From an uncultured Prevotella sp. (lineage in GTDB: Bacteria > Bacteroidota > Bacteroidia > Bacteroidales > Bacteroidaceae), in contig OMXO01000004.1 of the NCBI GenBank assembly GCA_900315035.1, positions 6,129-70,128 of the forward strand: a stretch of DNA of 64,000 nt, given 5' to 3'. The notes below the pieces were generated by a model. It was not told the DNA's origin and did no database searches. It was given only the letters and a program-made list of their open reading frames with translations. Made by a program: the position numbers and the translations under genes. Below, piece after piece: positions 24,465 through 63,772 of the stretch (positions are counted from its first letter, which is position 1; each line of letters opens with the position of its first letter).

Positions 24465-24569
24465 ATGATTACTTCAATGATTACACTGATGGAAATGGGC
24501 GCTTTGCTTTTGGCAGGAACAGTATTCAGTGCATGGATGGCAAAGCACAACAACCTGGAGGTTCGCTAA
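24465..24569 (+). CDS. Candidate small hydrophobic protein (34 aa)
   Basis: Below the ORF-track length cutoff. My own translation is MITSMITLMEMGALLLAGTVFSAWMAKHNNLEVR*. It is preceded by AGGAG (24451-24455) and a -7 box (24385-24392), and followed immediately by a hairpin plus T7 terminator. Confidence 0.35.
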   Translation: MITSMITLMEMGALLLAGTVFSAWMAKHNNLEVR

Positions 24570-24733: not shown

Positions 24734-24751
24734 CCAGTTAGGCCGCAAATT
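24734..24751. repeat. Conserved 18-mer CCAGTTAGGCCGCAAATT (copy 1)
   Basis: Identical to 59237-59254. In both copies it lies 22-23 nt left of the leftward -7 box and is followed by the shared TCGAC(A/G)GTGCAAAG. Confidence 0.9.
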
Positions 24752-24773
24752 CCGTATTTTTTCGTCGACAGTG

Positions 24774-24781
24774 CAAAGGTA
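24774..24781 (-). promoter_or_regulatory. Leftward -7 box at the left edge of palindromic element A (no CDS downstream)
   Basis: Minus-strand TAccTTTG within CGTACCTTTGCAC, the mirror image of the rightward box at 25085-25092. Confidence 0.35.
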
Positions 24782-24817
24782 CGAAATTTTCAGAGTACCT
24801 CCAAATTATTTCACCAT

Positions 24818-24838
24818 AAAAGCACGTTAAAAAGCACG
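24818..24838. repeat. Direct pair AAAAGCACG-TT-AAAAAGCACG (element A), mirrored at 25028-25049
   Basis: Direct repeat with a ~11-12 nt period. The mirror copies on the right arm are CGTGTCTTTT and CGTGCTTTTT. Element B has the analogous AAAACCGCACTT/AAAATCGCACTT at about 59317-59340. Confidence 0.7.
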
Positions 24839-24860
24839 CAACCACGCAAAATGCCAAAAC

Positions 24861-25013
24861 GCTACAGCGCTACAGTGCTACAGTTAGAAAACTAGCAATC
24901 AAAAAGCAAAAAAATAATTCTATATATATTTATATATATATATAAATATATATAGGCATATTTATTGAGGTGCGGTGACCATTATTTCAACTGTAGCACT
25001 GTAGCGCTGTAGC
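24861..25013. repeat. Element A core: perfect 25-bp inverted repeat of tandem octamers flanking a 103-nt interior
   Basis: The left arm 24861-24885 is GCTACAGC GCTACAGT GCTACAGT T. The right arm 24989-25013 is its exact reverse complement AACTGTAGCACTGTAGCGCTGTAGC. Confidence 0.95.
24920..24955. repeat. Element A centre: perfect 36-bp palindrome, A/T-only apart from the terminal C/G
   Basis: The sequence is CTATATATATTTATATATATATATAAATATATATAG. All 18 base pairs were checked position by position. Confidence 0.95.
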
Positions 25014-25084
25014 ACTTTTTTGTCTTCCGTGTCTTTTCCCGTGCTTTTTTTGCTTTATTATTTTTCAGTACGGTCTTTTTTGCG

Positions 25085-53903: not shown

Positions 53904-56615
53904 ATGGAGAAGCAGAACTATCTTCAACGGATCATAGGGATGGTAAAATGGTTTTTACCTTCTTTCCCTCTTGCCCTTTTACCTTTTTTCCTTTTTACCT
54001 TTTTACCTTTACCAGCGTTGGCCCAGGGCCTTCCGCTTATCCGTAATTACACAGCAGCAGAATATGGTGGGCATAACAATTGCTACGATATAGAGATTGG
54101 CGTTGACGGTACTGTGTTTGTGGCTAACTTCGAAGGACTACTCTATTACGACCGTGCAAGGTGGCGCATTATCCATACACCCGATATCAGTCGGATCACG
54201 GTGGTCTATCGTGACAGCAAGAACACGATTTGGGTTGGCGGCTATAACCACTTGTTCCGTTTGCAGGAACGGGCCAATGGCGACTTGTTCTTGCAACAGG
54301 TGGGGCGCGACGGTCAGTTCAAGGGCGAGGTGATGGAGATCTTCGAGGATGGTGGTTCGTTGCTGTTCGTGGCCAGCGACAATAATGTCTATGAAGTCAA
54401 CGGCAGTACCATATCCTTCAAAGAGCAGACGAGTGCAAAATTCAGCCCTGGTGTCGCTTCCAGCATCGTGTCGTTGGGAGCCGTGAAAGAGGGAAGTGCA
54501 GAAGTCATTCTTGATGACATTACTCAAACGGAGAATCTGGACGGCGGGCTTCAGGTCAAGGTCAAGAAGAATTCAGGACTGATCATTGCCGATGCTCAAG
54601 GTCATGAACTCTATACCATTACAGAGGATAACGGCCTGTGTTCCAATCAAGTGGCCTATGTGGCCTACGATGGTCATGGATTGCTCTGGGGCGCAACGTT
54701 GCATGGTGTCTTCTCTATTGAGATCCCTTCACTTTTCAGCTATTTCATGGACAAGGATGGTCTCGATGGCGAGGTACATGCCATCACGGCTTTCGACGGC
54801 AAGATGTATGTGGGCACCACGAACGGCCTTTACAGCATCGCTATTCCCGAGCCAAGCATGCCTGTCCGTAGCCTTTCGTATCAATGCAAGCGTATAGCCG
54901 AAATCAAGAATATATGTTGGACTCTGGCTCCAAGTCGTGACGAACTGTTCGCTGCCACGTCCAGCGGCATCTACAAGATTGCACGAGGCGGCAAGGTAAG
55001 CAGGCTGACTTCTAATTCCACTACCGCCTTGCTAGTTGATGGCGACAAGGTCTATGCCGGAGAACCCGATGGTGTCTATGTCTATCTGCCAGACTTCCTG
55101 AAGCGTACCAAGGTCAACGATATCCCGTTGGCTACCGATATCCGGAAAAATGCTCAAGGCGGTCTCTGGAGCAAGAATGTTCACGGACAGACTGTCGGCG
55201 ATGATCCGGGCATGATACGTGAACCCCTTGCCGATCTGCCTGCTCACCTGAAGAATCCGCTCAGCGACATCGAGGTGACGGCCCAGTATCGTTATGGCAG
55301 TCAGACGTGGATAGGCGGTGATGAGATTCTTGTTGTCGTCGATACCGGTCAGAAAGACCTTGCCCGACTTTCCGATTGTCGTACCGTCCATTTCCGTTCC
55401 ATCATCATGGGCAACGACAGTGTGCTATGGGGTGGCTATGGGGAAATGCCCCAAGAACTATCCAAGTTAGCCGACGATGAGCGCCATCTGCATTTCTTCT
55501 ATGCACTCGACTATACTCCGCTGACGGGTAAGACGCTTTATCGCTATCGCCTGAACAACGACAAATGGAGTGCATGGAGCGAGAAGCAGAGCGTGGAATT
55601 TCTGAATCTGCCCTATGGGTCGTTTACCCTTAGCGTACAGGCCAGACTGGCTAACGGCGAACTGTCGGAGATCGCATCCGTCGATTTTTCCATTGCCTAC
55701 CCATTGTTCATGCGCTGGTATATGGTGGTCATCTACTTCATTCTCTTGGCCTGCCTGGTCTATCTGCTGTTCCGTTATCGTGCCGATCTCCGTCAAGCGC
55801 AACAGGAACTGATACGTCAGGAGAAAATGGCGTCGGTGGGTAAACTGACCGAGGGACTCATTGACCGACTCCTGAACCCGATGAACTATATCATCAACTT
55901 CTCGAAGATGTCAAACGACCTGCTGAAAGACTTCAAGGAGGCTATCGGGCACAAGACAGAGGCGAAGACCGATGGTCAGGTCGTTATCAGCGACAACGAC
56001 TATGAAGACATGCTCGACATCGCTGATATGCTGACCGAGAACCTGCGTAACGTTGACGATTATGGCCAGAACGCCACCCGCATGCTCAAGGCGATGGAGG
56101 AGATGCTGAAAGACCGCCAAGGCGGCTATACCGATATGGATCTCCTGCCTGTGCTTCATCAGAACGAGGAGATGTTCGCCAAATATTATGTCAACGAGAA
56201 AGAAAAGCATCATATCCGTGCAACATTTACTTTGCCCGACAGTGCGATGCCGTTGAACGGAAATCCCGCTTTGCTCAGCAAGGTCTTTATGAATATCCTG
56301 GGCAATGCGGTCTATGCCGTAGTCAGGAAGGCAGAGAGAGCGAAAGGGTTCGTCCCCGAGATATCCCTTGCCGCCACTGTTGTCGATGGACAGTACGTCG
56401 TGGCGGTTCGCGACAACGGCATCGGTATTGACGAGAAACAACTCGACAAGATCTTCAATCCTTTCTTCACCACCAAAACCACCAGCGAGGCTGCAGGCAT
56501 AGGACTCTACCTGAGTCGCGAAATCATACAGAACCACGGCGGCGACATCAGCGTGGAGAGTCGCAAGGACGATTACACAGAGTTTACCATTAGCCTTCCA
56601 AAGGTCAAAAAGTAA
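53904..56615 (+). CDS. HTCS-like periplasmic sensor (Reg_prop repeats + Y_Y_Y) fused to a histidine-kinase-like ATPase core lacking the phospho-acceptor His
   Basis: 903 aa with a signal/TM N-terminus. Propeller repeats include NTIWVGGYNHLFRL, GLLWGATLHGVFSI, KMYVGTTNGLYSI and ELFAATSSGIYKI. Y_Y_Y region is LHFFYALDYTPLTGKTLYRYRLNNDKWSAW, followed by a TM segment (MVVIYFILLACLVYLLF). The H-box-equivalent reads EKMASVGKLTEGLIDRLLNP. N-box NILGNAVYAV, G1 DNGIGI, F FNPFFTTK, G2 GIGLYLS. Confidence 0.8.
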   Translation: MEKQNYLQRIIGMVKWFLPSFPLALLPFFLFTFLPLPALAQGLPLIRNYTAAEYGGHNNCYDIEIGVDGTVFVANFEGLLYYDRARWRIIHTPDISRITVVYRDSKNTIWVGGYNHLFRLQERANGDLFLQQVGRDGQFKGEVMEIFEDGGSLLFVASDNNVYEVNGSTISFKEQTSAKFSPGVASSIVSLGAVKEGSAEVILDDITQTENLDGGLQVKVKKNSGLIIADAQGHELYTITEDNGLCSNQVAYVAYDGHGLLWGATLHGVFSIEIPSLFSYFMDKDGLDGEVHAITAFDGKMYVGTTNGLYSIAIPEPSMPVRSLSYQCKRIAEIKNICWTLAPSRDELFAATSSGIYKIARGGKVSRLTSNSTTALLVDGDKVYAGEPDGVYVYLPDFLKRTKVNDIPLATDIRKNAQGGLWSKNVHGQTVGDDPGMIREPLADLPAHLKNPLSDIEVTAQYRYGSQTWIGGDEILVVVDTGQKDLARLSDCRTVHFRSIIMGNDSVLWGGYGEMPQELSKLADDERHLHFFYALDYTPLTGKTLYRYRLNNDKWSAWSEKQSVEFLNLPYGSFTLSVQARLANGELSEIASVDFSIAYPLFMRWYMVVIYFILLACLVYLLFRYRADLRQAQQELIRQEKMASVGKLTEGLIDRLLNPMNYIINFSKMSNDLLKDFKEAIGHKTEAKTDGQVVISDNDYEDMLDIADMLTENLRNVDDYGQNATRMLKAMEEMLKDRQGGYTDMDLLPVLHQNEEMFAKYYVNEKEKHHIRATFTLPDSAMPLNGNPALLSKVFMNILGNAVYAVVRKAERAKGFVPEISLAATVVDGQYVVAVRDNGIGIDEKQLDKIFNPFFTTKTTSEAAGIGLYLSREIIQNHGGDISVESRKDDYTEFTISLPKVKK

Positions 56616-56620
56616 AAAGT

Positions 56621-59110
56621 ATGGAGCAGAAGAAATATCTATTTATCATCAGTTTCCTTGTTTGTCTTCTTGCTTTGATGCCTTTATCCGCAGGAGCGCA
56701 GACTGATACGGAGATGCGCGATATCTACACGCAGGCAGAGAGCGATTACCAGATAGGCCGAATCGAACAGGCTCGCGATGCCCTGTTGCAACATCTCACC
56801 GACTTCCATGGGAACCAGCGCCAGAGTGCGCTCCGCCTCATTGCCCTTTGCTATCTGGCACGTTTCGATATGGAGAAGACGGAGCACTATGCCTCGCTGA
56901 TATTGCAGGATAACCCTTACTACAGCCCGTCGTCGCTTGATCCCGCGATCTTTGCCGATATCGTGAACAGCATCAAGTCTGGTATGACCGCTACCATTAC
57001 CACCGCTTCCAGTCAGACAGAGAGTCTGTTAGAGGTGCCTGTTCCCTCAGCGCTCATTACCGCCGAAATGATCAGGAACAGCGGAGCCCGAAATCTGCAG
57101 GAAGTGCTTGCTACCTATGTGCCTGGCATGAACATTGTCGATTGTAACGACGATATCAACATCGCCATGCGCGGCATCTACAGTTATACGCAGGAAAAGA
57201 TTCTCATCATGCTCAATGGGCATCGTCTGAACAGTTATGCTACCAACACCGCTGCGCCCGATTTCAGCATCTCCTTGGAGAATGTGAAACAGATAGAAGT
57301 GCTGCGTGGTCCCGCCTCCTCACTTTATGGCGATGTGGCTCTTACCGGTGTGGTGAATATCATCACCAAACAAGGAGCCGATGTGGACGGCATCAAGGCG
57401 AAAGTTGCGGCAGGTAATCACGGGCAGATCAAGGCCGACGCCATCCTCGGCAAGCGTTATTTCGACATCGACCTGCTCGTCTGGGGAAGTGCCTATCGCA
57501 ACAGTGGCGATCGGCCTATCGGCAATCATCCCTCCTATGACTTAGGCCTGCAACTGGGTTATAAAGGTCTGCAACTCATGTACGACACCCATTTCTCACA
57601 GGTTGCCGCCCCGTTTACCATGGGTTGTCCTGCCATGCCATACAACCGTGAGCGCTATATTACCCAAAATGCTTACGGTCCCAGTTTTGCTACCAGTTCA
57701 CGACATCTCGACCTGAGTTACAACCATCAGATGGGCAACTTGAATCTGAAGTATGCCGCCACCTACGACAAGTCGGATATGACGCGCTATCAGGTGCTTA
57801 GCGACGAGCCGTCACACATATTGTCTTGGACGCTCCCGTTGCCTCTTTACATGATACAAGTGTATGACTCTTTGGGAGGACTCTCCCGATATGTCAACGG
57901 CCAGGATCAGCACTTCGGCTTCCAGCTGAAGGGCAACTATGCCTATACACTGAGTGCCCGACAAAAGGGCCATATCAGTTTCGGAGCCGAGTATGGTCAC
58001 TTCAAACTCGATGACATGCGCTATCAGATGGGCTATAATTTCGTAGAGACATTCGCCGGGGATGTGAAGACGCGCGGAATCGGAAAGGGTAGAGAGAACA
58101 GTGCCAATGTCTATCTGCAACTGAAGCATCAGTGGGATTTCTCTCTCTTCTCCTATCCCTCTTCACTGCTTCTGAATGCCGGTATGCGTTTCGACTACAA
58201 GAACCACTATGACGATACTCAGGTGCGTGAACTGTCGCCTCGAGTGGCCCTCATCCTGTTGCGCCCCAAGTGGAACGTCAGGCTGAGTTATTCCAAGTCG
58301 TTTGTCGATGTACCATATCTCTATCGCAAATCCAATGCCCTCGCTGCATTGATTCGTGAGCGCAAAAACGATGAAAGCCTCTCGCCTGAGCGCGCTCACT
58401 CCTTCCAACTCTCATTTGCAGGACTAAACTGGGTGAAAGGGCTGAATTTCGAAGTCAACGGTTTCTACAATCATGCCTCAGACCTCATTATGACCGATAT
58501 TCTCACCTACAAGAACACGAGCCAGAACAGAACCGGCGGACTGGAGTTGATGGCTGGTTACAGACGGCCGAGGCTCACCACTCACTGGAACCTGACCTGG
58601 ACGCACACTTTCAAGTCGACTATCGTACCCATAGAACTCTACGAGAAACTGATGCCCTATTATTCTTATAACATCGATGACAACAATAATACCCCGGTCA
58701 TCATGTCGAATCTGGTAGTCGGTTGGCAGGCTGCGTCTCGGTTGCGACTTCATGCCCATGTGCTCTTCGAGAGCAGTCAGACATCGTATAACATCGATCT
58801 TGAGCAATTTGCCAAGACTCGCACCCAATACTTCTTATACGATCTTTACTACCCCATTCATGACATGGAGAAGCTGGCCGCTATCTACTGGGCTAGCGCT
58901 GTAGATGCTGCGCAGAAGACTGTTAGCCGTCATGAGATGTCTGCCCGCTGCATCCTGAACGTCGGTGGCGAATATACGTTCGGGCCCGTCACCATCGGGC
59001 TGGACATCCACAATCTTCTGGGTACTCGCTATAACCGTAGTGGCATGAACACGATCCTGATTCCCCAGCAAGGACGTTGGCTCATGGGCAGCATTGCCGT
59101 CAGTTTATAG
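56621..59110 (+). CDS. TonB-dependent-receptor-like outer-membrane protein with an N-terminal TPR-like extension
   Basis: 829 aa with a signal peptide. About 100 aa of helical TPR-like region (YQIGRIEQARDALLQHL...ALRLIALCYLARFDMEKTEHYASLIL). Plug-like region (VPVPSALITAEMIRNSGARNLQEVLATYVPGM...EVLRGPASSLYGDVALTGVVNIITKQG), then a long beta-barrel. Confidence 0.7.
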   Translation: MEQKKYLFIISFLVCLLALMPLSAGAQTDTEMRDIYTQAESDYQIGRIEQARDALLQHLTDFHGNQRQSALRLIALCYLARFDMEKTEHYASLILQDNPYYSPSSLDPAIFADIVNSIKSGMTATITTASSQTESLLEVPVPSALITAEMIRNSGARNLQEVLATYVPGMNIVDCNDDINIAMRGIYSYTQEKILIMLNGHRLNSYATNTAAPDFSISLENVKQIEVLRGPASSLYGDVALTGVVNIITKQGADVDGIKAKVAAGNHGQIKADAILGKRYFDIDLLVWGSAYRNSGDRPIGNHPSYDLGLQLGYKGLQLMYDTHFSQVAAPFTMGCPAMPYNRERYITQNAYGPSFATSSRHLDLSYNHQMGNLNLKYAATYDKSDMTRYQVLSDEPSHILSWTLPLPLYMIQVYDSLGGLSRYVNGQDQHFGFQLKGNYAYTLSARQKGHISFGAEYGHFKLDDMRYQMGYNFVETFAGDVKTRGIGKGRENSANVYLQLKHQWDFSLFSYPSSLLLNAGMRFDYKNHYDDTQVRELSPRVALILLRPKWNVRLSYSKSFVDVPYLYRKSNALAALIRERKNDESLSPERAHSFQLSFAGLNWVKGLNFEVNGFYNHASDLIMTDILTYKNTSQNRTGGLELMAGYRRPRLTTHWNLTWTHTFKSTIVPIELYEKLMPYYSYNIDDNNNTPVIMSNLVVGWQAASRLRLHAHVLFESSQTSYNIDLEQFAKTRTQYFLYDLYYPIHDMEKLAAIYWASAVDAAQKTVSRHEMSARCILNVGGEYTFGPVTIGLDIHNLLGTRYNRSGMNTILIPQQGRWLMGSIAVSL

Positions 59111-59236
59111 GGCGAAGATTTGTATCAATAAGTCAAAGATCAATAGATTGTCAGGTAAATTCTTTGTCTGCGATTCGGCTCTGTTTTTGGCTCTGGTTAG
59201 AAAAAATTGCCTCGTGCACTAGGAAAATTTTCCGCT

Positions 59237-59254
59237 CCAGTTAGGCCGCAAATT
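59237..59254. repeat. Conserved 18-mer CCAGTTAGGCCGCAAATT (copy 2)
   Basis: Identical to 24734-24751, in the same orientation and the same position relative to the rest of the element. Confidence 0.9.
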
Positions 59255-59275
59255 TCTGCCTCATTTTCGACGGTG

Positions 59276-59283
59276 CAAAGATA
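59276..59283 (-). promoter_or_regulatory. Leftward -7 box at the left edge of palindromic element B (no CDS downstream)
   Basis: Minus-strand TAtcTTTG within TTATCTTTGCACCGTCGA. Same context as element A (TTTGCAC-GTCGA). Confidence 0.35.
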
Positions 59284-59384
59284 AGCATAAATCAAAGACC
59301 CTGCAAACTTTTTTCAAAAAACCGCACTTAAAATCGCACTTTTTGTACCCTTATTATCTATGATAATATTTCGGGTCTTGTCTT

Positions 59385-59540
59385 AGTCATTTAGTCATTT
59401 AGTCATTTAGTCATTTTCGATACACACCTCCTCAAATAAGAAACAATATATAATATAAAATATATTTTATATTATATATTGAGCATAGTAGAGCTTGTGT
59501 CTAAACGATTTTGACTAAATGACTAAATGACTAAATGACT
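59385..59540. repeat. Element B core: perfect 29-bp inverted repeat of tandem octamers flanking a 98-nt interior
   Basis: The left arm lies within (TAGTCATT)x4 at 59384-59415. The arm 59385-59413 pairs exactly with 59512-59540 (TGACTAAATGACTAAATGACTAAATGACT). Confidence 0.95.
59444..59481. repeat. Element B centre: perfect 38-bp palindrome, A/T-only apart from the terminal C/G
   Basis: The sequence is CAATATATAATATAAAATATATTTTATATTATATATTG. All 19 base pairs were checked position by position. Confidence 0.95.
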
Positions 59541-59572
59541 GAGAAATGCTTGGATTTATCGAATCTTTTGAC

Positions 59573-59580
59573 TATTTTTG
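59573..59580 (+). promoter_or_regulatory. -7 box TAnnTTTG (right edge of element B)
   Basis: TAttTTTG, 30 nt upstream of the ATG at 59611. Confidence 0.4.
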
Positions 59581-62446: not shown

Positions 62447-63772
62447 TTATTGCTCGTCGTTGTTGCTTGGCTTCTCGTCGATGGGCTTTTCGCCATAGGG
62501 CTTTTCGCCATAAGGCATCCGCCTTCTGGGCTGTCTGGGCGCTCTCGGTTCACTGAACTCTCTGCGCTCTCTGGGCTCTCTGAACTCTCTGCGATCCCTT
62601 GGCTCACCGAAATCTCTGCGCTCTCTGGGCTCTCTGAATTCTCTGCGCTCCCTTGGCTCACCGAACTCTCTGCGCTCTCTCGGTTCTCTGAACTCTCTGC
62701 GCTCTCTTGGTTCTCCGAATTCTCTGCGCTCTCTCGGTTCTCTGAATTCTCTGCGCTCTCTCGGCTCCCTGAACTCTCTTGGTTCTCTCGGCTCTTTCTG
62801 CTCCCGTGGCTCTTTTGGCTCTCTTGGTTCCTTGGGCTCTTTAGGCTCCATGAATTTCAGGAGTTTCCCAGATTTGATAAGGTTGCGGCAGATAGTGTCG
62901 AGCATGCCGTTGATATAACTGCCGCTCTTGCGGGTAGAGTAGATTTTAGCCAGTTCTACATACTCGTTGATGCTGACGCTCACAGGGATGTTCGGGAAGG
63001 TCATGATCTCGGCGATGGCCAGTTGCATGAGGATGATATCCATGAAGGCCAGACGGGAGAAGTCCCAGTTGCGTGAGGTCTCGCTCATGTAGCGCTGATA
63101 ATGGTCGGAATTGAGGATGGCAGCGCGGAACAACTTACGTGCAAACTCCTGTTCCTCCTCGCTCGCCCATTCGGGCAGGAGCTCTTCCTTGCTACCGTTC
63201 TGCTCCTTGAAACGCTTGATGGTCTTCATGACGAAGGTATCGACAATATCCTTATCGTCGTTCCAGTAGAGGCTCTGTTCCTCGAGCATGCTGTCGATGT
63301 CGTCATTGTTCATGATGAAGGCCTTATAGAGATGACGCCAGAGGTCGCGGTCGGCCTCGTAACTGTCGTTCTTATCGTTCATGTATGTCTGATAGATCTC
63401 GCTGCTCTCGATTCTGTCGAGTAATTGTCCGACAATCACGTCGTTGTCGGCCCAGTTGAACTTCTGACTGCTCATGAAGTCCTGGAGCATCTTGTTTTCG
63501 CCCAGTTGTAGGGCGAAACGGTTGAGTACAAACTTCTGTGAAGGTTGGGGCGTGCCTTCGCGGAGAGCGCGCGACTGTAAGACCTCCATACGGCGGCTAG
63601 CCTCTTTAGTGATGGCTATAATGAGCGCCAGCAGATAGTTGTAGAGGTCATAAGACTTTGACAGACTGAAGAAAAGTTCCTTTTCAGCCGAGTCGATGTT
63701 CTTGTTACCGTTTTGATAGTAAGCGTAGGTTAACTGAACAATCTTGATTCTGATAATTTCCCTATTGATCAT
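62447..63772 (-). CDS. nusB: Transcription antitermination factor NusB with a ~135-aa repetitive Arg/Glu/Pro-rich C-terminal extension
   Basis: 441 aa. N-terminus MINREIIRIKIVQLTYAYYQNGNKNIDSAEKELFFSL resembles Bacteroidales NusB as I recall it. The C-terminal tail is made of REF(R/G)EPRER nonapeptide repeats. Confidence 0.75.
   Translation of the reverse strand: MINREIIRIKIVQLTYAYYQNGNKNIDSAEKELFFSLSKSYDLYNYLLALIIAITKEASRRMEVLQSRALREGTPQPSQKFVLNRFALQLGENKMLQDFMSSQKFNWADNDVIVGQLLDRIESSEIYQTYMNDKNDSYEADRDLWRHLYKAFIMNNDDIDSMLEEQSLYWNDDKDIVDTFVMKTIKRFKEQNGSKEELLPEWASEEEQEFARKLFRAAILNSDHYQRYMSETSRNWDFSRLAFMDIILMQLAIAEIMTFPNIPVSVSINEYVELAKIYSTRKSGSYINGMLDTICRNLIKSGKLLKFMEPKEPKEPREPKEPREQKEPREPREFREPRERREFREPRERREFGEPRERREFREPRERREFGEPRERREFREPRERRDFGEPRDRREFREPRERREFSEPRAPRQPRRRMPYGEKPYGEKPIDEKPSNNDEQ
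62528..62850. repeat. 27-bp tandem repeat (8 good units at 62555-62770 plus degenerate flanks), grading into a 9-bp periodicity, inside nusB
   Basis: Units start at 62555, 62582, 62609, 62636, 62663, 62690, 62717 and 62744, with consensus GAAYTCTCTGCGCTCTCTBGGYTCTCT. On the minus strand they encode REF(R/G)EPRER. The region 62790-62850 encodes the (E/K)P(K/R)E triplet-like repeat. Confidence 0.9.

Follow-up and report, generated by a model that had tools for sequence, protein, structure and literature searches.

Element B lies at 59110-59544 of the 64-kb stretch of DNA analyzed here (hereafter, the window), which is taken from contig OMXO01000004.1 of an uncultured Prevotella sp., and the gene to its right encodes a DUF4251 protein (PF14059). 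An earlier note on this DNA had drawn attention to element B and to a second element, A, with the same order of parts. At a probability of roughly 55%, we read element B as an orphan, two-part module of a large Prevotella family, in which a promoter and leader remnant (part 1, 59110-59341) stands beside an origin-like iteron cassette (part 2, 59383-59544) that would be read by a primase-helicase. The architecture, the family, its genomic association, and a covariation between iteron and protein helix are direct observations. The features at the locus are as follows.

59110-59266, (-) strand: leader remnant of a HU-HIG/smalltalk operon, genes gone, defined by alignment with the leaders of ~80 family copies
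59237-59254: 18-mer CCAGTTAGGCCGCAAATT, inside the leftward HU-HIG-type leader remnant
59267-59307, (-) strand: predicted leftward Bacteroidetes-type promoter, a block kept in all family copies
59318-59341, (+) strand: direct pair AAAACCGCACTT/AAAATCGCACTT, ~45-70 bp upstream of the leftward promoter
59383-59416, (+) strand: left iteron array, TAGTCATT x4, oriented toward the palindrome
59414-59443: left spacer, 30 nt, with no complementarity to the right spacer
59444-59481: A/T-rich perfect palindrome of 38 bp, C-(A/T)36-G, a candidate DNA-unwinding or cruciform-prone centre
59482-59511: right spacer, 30 nt
59512-59544, (-) strand: right iteron array made of AATGACTA units and inverted relative to the left array; the module's right boundary is at its outer end
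59573-59580, (+) strand: -7 box TATTTTTG of the native DUF4251 promoter, outside the module and kept in a species that carries no cassette at this site

Every part that the earlier note had listed for element B was found where it had placed it, far above chance expectation. Allowing up to two mismatches, the 18-mer has two matches in the window (59237-59254 and 24734-24751; expected, 0), and exact matches to TCGACNGTGCAAAG occur solely at 59267-59280 in B and 24765-24778 in A. Part of the latter block, CAAAGATA (59276-59283), gives the Bacteroidetes -7 box TAnnTTTG when reverse-complemented; read leftward, the -7 box of element B is TATCTTTG, and the accompanying -33 TTTG is the reverse complement of 59304-59307. 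The consensus TTTG/TAnnTTTG is the established Bacteroidetes promoter pattern. In the cassette, four TAGTCATT units stand on either side of a 98-nt interval centred on the 38-bp palindrome. Perfect palindromes of at least 18 bp number two in the whole window (50.7% G+C), those of A and B. Folded as a single strand, positions 59375-59550 (176 nt) reach -44.2 kcal/mol (z = -12.9).

The window's other orphan copy, element A, is made up of these parts.

24734-25016: element A, with 18-mer (24734-24751), promoter (24765-24781), and AAAAGCACG direct repeats
24861-24885: left array, GCTACAGY x3
24920-24955: palindrome, 36 bp
24990-25016: right array, ACTGTAGC x3

The stems of both elements had been described as perfectly self-complementary. 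This holds for the arrays of A and for 29 nt of B (59385-59413/59512-59540); when extended to 33 nt, the arms of B are 97% complementary with one mismatch, and local alignment of the arms of A gives 29 matches in 30 columns, the single gap falling in the bases just inside the arrays. Common ancestry of the A and B spacers was rejected in either orientation, the similarity being not significant. At 24465-24569, a 34-aa hydrophobic open reading frame (ORF; MITSMITLMEMGALLLAGTVFSAWMAKHNNLEVR) followed by a hairpin and T-run converges with the leader remnant of that element; metagenome assemblies call this ORF as a gene, and it has no family match.

The two elements belong to a genuine family of fixed architecture and variable sequence, as the earlier note had supposed, with ~100 copies and at least 57 types. 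The exact 18-mer occurs at 17 loci of rumen Prevotella/Prevotellaceae genomes, with several copies per genome, and in at least 120 metagenome contigs, and ~100 of the matches listed represent the same module. Nearly all copies show the A/B architecture rightward of the 18-mer, with different sequences, and further copies of the cassette exist without the 18-mer. The types, all from rumen Prevotella metagenomes, have a unit period of 7, 8, or 9 bp and arrays of 3-5 units each, inverted about an A/T-rich palindrome of 22-58 bp. Examples of units are GCTACAGT, GTTGCAGT, TAGTCATT (also found as arrays in loci L004, L081, L110, L121, and L122; L numbers designate the loci compared), AGTCATT, ATTACAG, TTTCAGA, TATCAGA, GGGACAWW, GGTCATTAA, TTGTCAT, ATTGTACC, and GATGGCA. 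Among 90 copies with enough sequence, the palindrome was perfect over at least 22 bp in 68, near-perfect in 15, and missing in 7 through deletion or disruption by an insertion sequence (IS). Nearly all perfect palindromes of at least 22 bp in 958 kb of loci (81/83) fell within 450 bp of an 18-mer, beside the HU-HIG promoter. None of these sequences was found in the papers searched.

Two side observations concern the reach of the family. Another Prevotella species carries TCTCAAAG x4 arrays and a 36-bp A/T palindrome (L153, 660-860) beside a DUF4248 gene and a truncated HU-HIG gene, with a different leftward gene and no 18-mer. Several metagenome contigs end in or near modules (L151, L152, L170, L171, and many short ones), and many contigs bearing HU-HIG are shorter than 1.5 kb; some of the breaks in rumen Prevotella assemblies may be due in part to the modules.

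The earlier note had proposed that symmetry rather than sequence is maintained. For the A/T palindrome this is borne out, as symmetry is kept by mirrored substitutions and indels: CACAAT...ATTGTG is matched by CATAAT...ATTATG, and AAAATATATTTT by AAAAATATATTTTT. The 38-bp palindrome of B is identical in seven other loci (L110, L121, L122, L146, L147, L157, and L158), and that of a related type (L075) differs from it by mirrored indels. The proposal does not extend to the arms, whose sequence covaries with a protein helix (see below) and which were expected always to match perfectly; a perfect arm alignment was obtained in 14/57 types. Core-motif counts are unequal between the arms in 26/59 types, the spacing of cores varies within an array, and the orthologues of B in L110 and L122 carry five units on the right versus four on the left, together with three single-nucleotide differences in the left spacer. 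Mean self-complementarity of the spacers across the family is 34%. Because the arms are often unequal or imperfect and the spacers noncomplementary, the arrays appear as tandem sites with a conserved 5-6-bp core and not as a maintained stem. Strict symmetry is kept by the A/T palindrome alone; that the arms are complementary follows simply from identical units being arrayed in inverted orientation.

The same features bear on whether the cassette could be a structured RNA, namely, a long hairpin with a 29-bp outer stem and a 19-bp A/U apical stem that serves as a regulatory or processing signal. Its strong predicted folding (z = -12.9) is in keeping with such a role, as are weak, sub-threshold Rfam matches that resemble microRNA precursors, although these reflect hairpin shape. 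We regard this explanation as very unlikely, since both flanking promoters point away from the cassette and none reads in, and since unequal unit numbers and spacing would disrupt the stem. Nor does any Rfam family match: Rfam 15 gave 0 matches in the whole window at the gathering score, and its sensitive mode returned solely plant microRNA hairpin matches far below threshold.

The promoter/leader half has a separate identity. Across copies, the 18-mer and the TCGAC..GCAAAG block align as a promoter followed by a conserved, leftward leader of ~120-190 nt, which in about half of the copies is followed by a HU-HIG gene (PF18291/TIGR01201) and, in full-length copies, by a gene for the 33-aa smalltalk protein (NF033879; Pfam DUF6486; PF20096). 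The remaining copies, A and B included, retain promoter and leader only, and some now drive another gene (L003 and L026). Pairs equivalent to the direct pair of B (AAAAAGCACGC or AAAATGACAC; also written AAAANCGCAC) are present in most family copies. In an RNAalifold consensus, the 18-mer takes part in two helices, CUGGG:CCUAG and UUUGCG:CGCAAA, with covariation that is weak and biased by how the copies were found. Copies retrieved through their proteins instead of the 18-mer carry variants of it (CCTAGTTGGGTCGCAATTAT and CCTAATTAGGCCGCAATTTT) or a wholly different leader, and the cassette is still present. Because these copies keep the cassette under other leaders, the 18-mer is best assigned to the leader of one HU-HIG subfamily, separate from the cassette. 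The 18-mer and the leftward -7 box, which the earlier note had counted as parts of the element, accordingly belong to a promoter and 5' leader that other cassettes lack.

HU-HIG proteins have been described as lineage-specific expansions without a conserved operon partner by Aravind's group (PMC5499826). Their domain was also considered as the specific binder of the arrays and rejected, since copies whose units are unrelated have almost the same HU domain. The first rightward gene product, an alphaCTD-like coiled-coil protein (PF03118), was rejected as binder for a similar reason: near-identical proteins accompany the GCTACAGT, GGTCATTAA, and TTTCAG types. A phage origin was rejected as well, with the 18-mer absent from IMG/VR and the HU-HIG relatives in viral contigs (51-58% identity) lacking the cassette.

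Several further features were noted around HU-HIG genes. Leaders of other HU-HIG subfamilies carry repeat arrays of their own (L179, 3860-4090; L177, 3470-3560; L167), with examples including GTGGAGT/CTTCACT heptamers in inverted orientation, a CCGTCATTACCTCT direct repeat in three copies, and a duplicated insert rich in GC. Small ORFs adjoining HU-HIG/smalltalk modules (L154, 1123-1227, (-) strand; L141, leftward of the 18-mer) encode peptides with double-glycine leader-like sequences (MVQKNEMSARALTMEEMENVNGGKRRRRNRIPCA and MKQKDEKKDAKVLSQEELENIVGGKKKPYPPFKEK), which suggests bacteriocin-like precursors. A second small repeat, approximately TTTACTTTGGGGCCTGACCCCAG, is often tandem and inserted in coding sequence, where it is translated as ..GVRPQSKV..; it was seen in remnants of HU-HIG genes (L015, L054, L095, L111, and L129) and inside a Peptidase_M15 gene (L017, +5229 to +5870 from the 18-mer), and it gave spurious tblastn matches between unrelated loci.

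The right boundary of the module is the right arm. Immediately beyond it, B runs into sequence that shares homology with the native DUF4251 promoter in a related species, which is cassette-free at that site; the search of DUF4251 homologues for an empty site yielded this one diverged species, enough to place the boundary. The rightward -7 box, which the earlier note had included in the element, belongs to the native DUF4251 promoter and is conserved in this cassette-free species. Homology among L002, L005, and L015 likewise stops at the right arm.

A boundary that coincides with the right arm, together with inverted repeats of 24-33 bp flanking ~100 bp, is what an inverton or a miniature transposable element would show if the arms were its terminal inverted repeats. 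Several findings make this explanation scarcely credible. No flipped variant was seen among 57 same-type pairs of copies, in assemblies that show the majority orientation only, and no promoter motif was found between the arms. Target-site duplications were not seen at the module boundaries, the arrays do not recur elsewhere in 71 loci, and the cassette almost never occurs away from a HU-HIG promoter. Copies within one genome differ in sequence, unlike families of MITEs (miniature inverted-repeat transposable elements) or repetitive extragenic palindromic (REP) sequences. The earlier note's view that the element fits neither REP, MITE, inverton, nor CRISPR was upheld. Two other symmetric or coding interpretations were tried and dropped. 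The whole element is not a mirrored divergent-promoter palindrome, as significant outer mirror similarity was limited to 9/56 copies and consisted mostly of promoter consensus. Matches at phage gene ends prompted the idea that the arrays are three-frame stop signals, which fails because GTTGCAGT and GGGACATT contain no stop codon.

Six complete elements were recovered from independent loci (L017/L039, L177, L179-181, L182/183, L184, and L185-187), five of them from the contexts of homologues of a ~760-aa protein. In each, the cassette occupies a 600-950-bp gap between a HU-HIG gene on the (-) strand and a (+) strand operon that ends with the ~760-aa protein. The cargo to the right of the cassette is variable and often includes restriction-modification, helicase/ATPase, or toxin-antitoxin genes. 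In loci with sufficient sequence, the end of the rightward operon is conserved and comprises a 117-aa protein rich in Cys, a small protein that is DUF3127 or DUF3127-like, a second small protein, the ~760-aa protein, and a small protein or a lysin (Peptidase_M15 or DUF5675). The smallest element (L185-187; ~5 kb) consists of HU-HIG, the cassette, a 93-aa protein, a pRha/ANT protein, a 759-aa protein, and a 128-aa protein. L177 and L182 occupy the same chromosomal site with different cargo. In the 64-kb window itself, no HU-HIG, DUF3127, or primase-helicase gene was found.

Direct searches with the sequence of the ~760-aa protein against Pfam, NCBIfam, PHROGs, and PDB gave nothing. A profile search of 1.84 billion representatives placed it in a family of 1610 clusters at 50% identity (at least 8,000 candidates were considered for this protein and for HU-HIG alike), the distant members of which carry PF08800 (BT4734-like_N) and PF13148 (DUF3987). 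We take PF08800 to be an archaeo-eukaryotic-primase-like domain and PF13148 to be a P-loop domain of primase-helicase-type proteins. DxD, GYH, and KD motifs are visible in the alignment, along with Walker A and B motifs; on the strength of this transitive profile homology, the ~760-aa protein is assigned to the BT4734-like_N/DUF3987 primase-helicase family. The confident parts of the AlphaFold model were limited to an alpha/beta domain at the N terminus and, at the C terminus, a helix-turn-helix with a beta hairpin after it; this C-terminal fold we read as a probable winged helix. The best-probability local Foldseek matches, none significant, were to a Prim-Pol domain and to winged-helix domains.

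The C-terminal helix of this protein tracks the repeat unit of the neighbouring cassette. Six protein-cassette pairs were available: GTTGCAGT occurs with P0316, P0266, and P0339, GTTACAGT with P0297 and P0252, and GCTACAGT with P0241. Five of the proteins are 84-95% identical, and the sole alignment columns among them that split by iteron type are 724, 727, 731, and 734, all in one C-terminal helix with the spacing i, i+3, i+7, and i+10. Helix GSGDGTLRSWQSRG pairs with iteron GTTGCAGT, and helix GDG[DE]STLRVWQNRG pairs with GTTACAGT; the sixth protein, ~78% identical to the five, has helix GDGDSTIRTWMTRG and iteron GCTACAGT. P0297 is 95% identical to P0266 and yet shares both helix and iteron with P0252, against the overall phylogeny. 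Between related cassettes, one and the same base is changed in each unit of both arms, and palindrome and spacers remain similar. A recognition helix co-evolving with its repeated site would be expected to leave such a pattern. Because the repeat unit follows four helix residues against phylogeny, the arrays are best read as iterons and the cassette as an origin-like initiator site.

Taken together, these observations make the following scheme the most likely one. The winged-helix-like C-terminal domain of the primase-helicase would bind the iterons on both sides, and melting or cruciform formation would take place at the A/T palindrome between the arrays. Bending of the ~30-nt spacers is plausibly the task of the HU-like protein encoded alongside, and the DUF3127-like protein may be a single-stranded-DNA-binding protein. 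Iteron sequences would diverge between lineages through co-evolution with the recognition helix of the initiator, and quasipalindrome correction could help to keep the palindrome symmetric. Because no initiator gene is nearby in the window, elements A and B would either be relics or serve as targets in trans.

Control of the divergent promoters could be a further, or the actual, outcome of this binding. In the latter case, the cassette might be a transcriptional operator with no role in replication, at which an element-encoded binder (perhaps this very winged helix) switches HU-HIG/smalltalk and the rightward operon on or off. In every case the cassette is found just upstream of the leftward promoter, and it is usually within 60-130 bp of a rightward TAnnTTTG promoter, and iteron-binding initiators commonly autoregulate, as is well established for iteron plasmids. 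Moreover, covariation indicates recognition, not replication. A purely regulatory cassette nevertheless seems to us rather unlikely. An A/T-only perfect palindrome of 24-58 bp between opposed arrays is the signature of helicase-loading origins and not of operators, the covarying helix belongs to a member of a primase-helicase family, and orphan cassettes adjoin unrelated housekeeping promoters.

Cassettes are exchanged between otherwise similar backgrounds. Contigs that share an identical esterase protein flanking the A locus carry one of three alleles in metagenomes: the GCTACAGY cassette (window, L148, and L149), an unrelated AGTCATT cassette of 3 or 4 units (L150 and L031), or an IS3-family element that replaces the cassette (L053, L134, L151, and L152). 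At another locus, an identical HU-HIG protein and downstream gene are joined either to a TGGTCATT cassette and one island or to a GTTGCAGT cassette and a different island, with the breakpoint in the promoter/18-mer region. In the IS3 allele of the A locus, the flanks end in mutually inverted CAAAATG/CATTTTG without a target duplication; IS3-family insertions in or beside cassettes were seen at several independent loci, L103, L054, and L094 also among them.

Exchanges and insertions of this kind would also be expected if the cassette were structural or recombinogenic DNA without a sequence-specific partner, a palindrome apt to form cruciforms with repeats apt to slip, kept symmetric by intrastrand template switching and either simply persisting or acting as a hotspot of island exchange. 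The mirrored changes in the palindrome and the differences in unit number between strains agree with such an origin, and quasipalindrome correction is an established mutational mechanism. We nonetheless judge this account quite improbable. It leaves unexplained why the unit tracks four residues of one helix against phylogeny, why noncomplementary spacers and a conserved 5-6-bp core with variable spacing occur, and why the cassette is confined to one genomic context.

A number of observations weigh against reading element B as an orphan, origin-like module. The covariation comes from six proteins and three closely related iteron types, and this small sample is the main limit on our confidence; no cognate protein was found for the TAGTCATT type of B. 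Binding, melting, replication, and the role of HU-HIG are steps that we infer. The helicase assignment of DUF3987 follows from family membership, the AlphaFold model is poor overall (predicted local distance difference test score, 47), and Foldseek returned no significant match. The primase-helicase gene is ~1-10 kb downstream of the cassette, or still farther away (in L172/L173, outside the 10-kb flank), the cassette itself lying in a divergent promoter region, and in most of the copies sampled no primase-helicase is within reach. A HU-HIG gene is lacking in about half of the copies, A and B among them, and integrase or packaging genes were not seen in the complete elements. Finally, the A locus presents two unrelated cassettes in near-identical backgrounds without element genes.

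If the origin-like reading is correct, a wider picture can be drawn, which we offer as a long shot. Prevotella, and probably other Bacteroidales, might carry on their chromosomes many non-excising mini-replicons (HU-HIG and smalltalk, an origin of iterons and palindrome, a slot for cargo, a DUF3127-like protein, the BT4734/DUF3987 primase-helicase, and a lysin) that fire in situ on signals such as phage attack and amplify the defence or surface-variation cargo between origin and initiator. Hypervariable iteron/helix pairs would keep co-resident copies orthogonal, in the manner of plasmid incompatibility groups, and orphans such as A and B might be trans-activated secondary origins or initiator sinks. 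Short of that picture, a testable function is offered for HU-HIG expansions, the 33-aa smalltalk protein, and BT4734/DUF3987 proteins. The unit sequence set against four helix residues would constitute a natural recognition code readable from genomes, and the interval between cassette and initiator gene marks a recurrent slot for defence cargo (restriction-modification, helicases, and toxin-antitoxin). If the cassettes are origins, they are candidate replicon parts for Prevotella, a genus poor in genetic tools.

Some other repeats came to light. The exact 18-mer also occurs, on the opposite strand, in an unrelated rumen-metagenome repeat with the context GGCACTTGGTCAATTTTCTACCCTGCATGCTTAAAAGTGAATTTGCGGCCTAACTGGAAACGACGATTGGGTACC (L032, L042, L056, L059, L108, L120, L124, L128, L135, and L142); its flanks are AT-rich and eukaryote-like, and the 18-mer in common may have arisen by chance or be the sign of a small RNA gene. 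Within the window, ~10 copies of a 27-bp tandem repeat with a 9-bp sub-periodicity lie at 62534-62849, inside a (-) strand ORF (62447-63772). A further octamer array, TTTTTACC x7 (53952-54010), lies just within the start of a 903-aa ORF (53904-56615) that is homologous to a Y_Y_Y/HATPase_c protein in L146.

Several known classes of repeat resemble the cassette in part. REP sequences, bacterial interspersed mosaic elements (BIMEs), REPINs, and Correia elements are likewise intergenic, hairpin-capable, multicopy, and sometimes promoter-bearing; however, they occur as near-identical copies in many contexts, whereas each copy here has its own unit and palindrome in a single context. No RAYT was seen in the annotated flanks. 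CRISPR arrays have 24-48-nt repeats with unique spacers, in contrast to the contiguous, inverted arrays of 7-9-nt units described here. Protelomerase targets of the telRL type have a similar geometry (a perfect palindrome plus inverted repeats), but the loci here are internal to ordinary chromosomal contigs; no telomere resolvase was present among the flanking proteins scanned against Pfam, although no search was aimed at resolvases.

Closer parallels are found among replication origins. Simian virus 40 and polyoma large T antigen, papillomavirus E1, and the herpes simplex virus oriS/oriL origins all involve inverted initiator repeats with an A/T-rich palindromic centre, on which two helicase assemblies form head to head. 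These viral dyad origins differ in belonging to eukaryotic viruses, in their unrelated proteins, in unit and spacing, and in having no hypervariable repertoire within one genome. The ori/crr sites of satellite phage P4, a chromosomally integrated element, contain octamer type I iterons, direct and inverted, that are bound by the C-terminal domain of the alpha primase-helicase. In P4, however, the iteron sequence is fixed and the two cis sites stand apart; P4 also encodes an integrase, is packaged by cos, and lacks an A/T palindrome. The likeness lies in octamer-type iterons, a primase-helicase C-terminal domain, and a chromosomal location; variable iterons and the A/T palindrome set the present cassettes apart.

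The Bacteroidales clusters of HU-HIG, smalltalk, DUF3987, and lysin genes contain the same protein families as the complete elements (PF18291, NF033879/PF20096, PF08800 plus PF13148, and Peptidase_M15 or DUF5675). In the literature searched, no cis element, origin, or function was described for these clusters, and nothing was said of what smalltalk or DUF3987 does; neither the cassette nor its link to the primase-helicase appears to have been described there.

The cassette is nonetheless not a class without a described counterpart, as the earlier note had held, because iteron origins of the staphylococcal pathogenicity island (SaPI) type share the architecture (PMC9371898). SaPI origins have iterons split about an AT-rich region in opposed orientation, island-specific in sequence and read by the C-terminal winged helix of Rep, a self-loading helicase or a primase-helicase fusion (PMC9371898), a description that the cassette fits closely. 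Compared with SaPIs and other phage-inducible chromosomal islands, the units here are 7-9 bp versus 5-6 bp, the centre is a perfect palindrome and not merely AT-rich, and the cassette is far upstream in a divergent promoter region, whereas the SaPI origin is immediately 3' of the initiator gene. The candidate initiator here is of the BT4734-like_N/DUF3987 family, there are many orphans, and integrase, packaging, and excision genes were not seen. What the two share are opposed arrays about an AT-rich centre and units that differ between elements; the covariation of those units with the C-terminal helix of a primase-helicase-family protein, seen here in six proteins and three iteron types, would correspond to the SaPI match between iteron and initiator.

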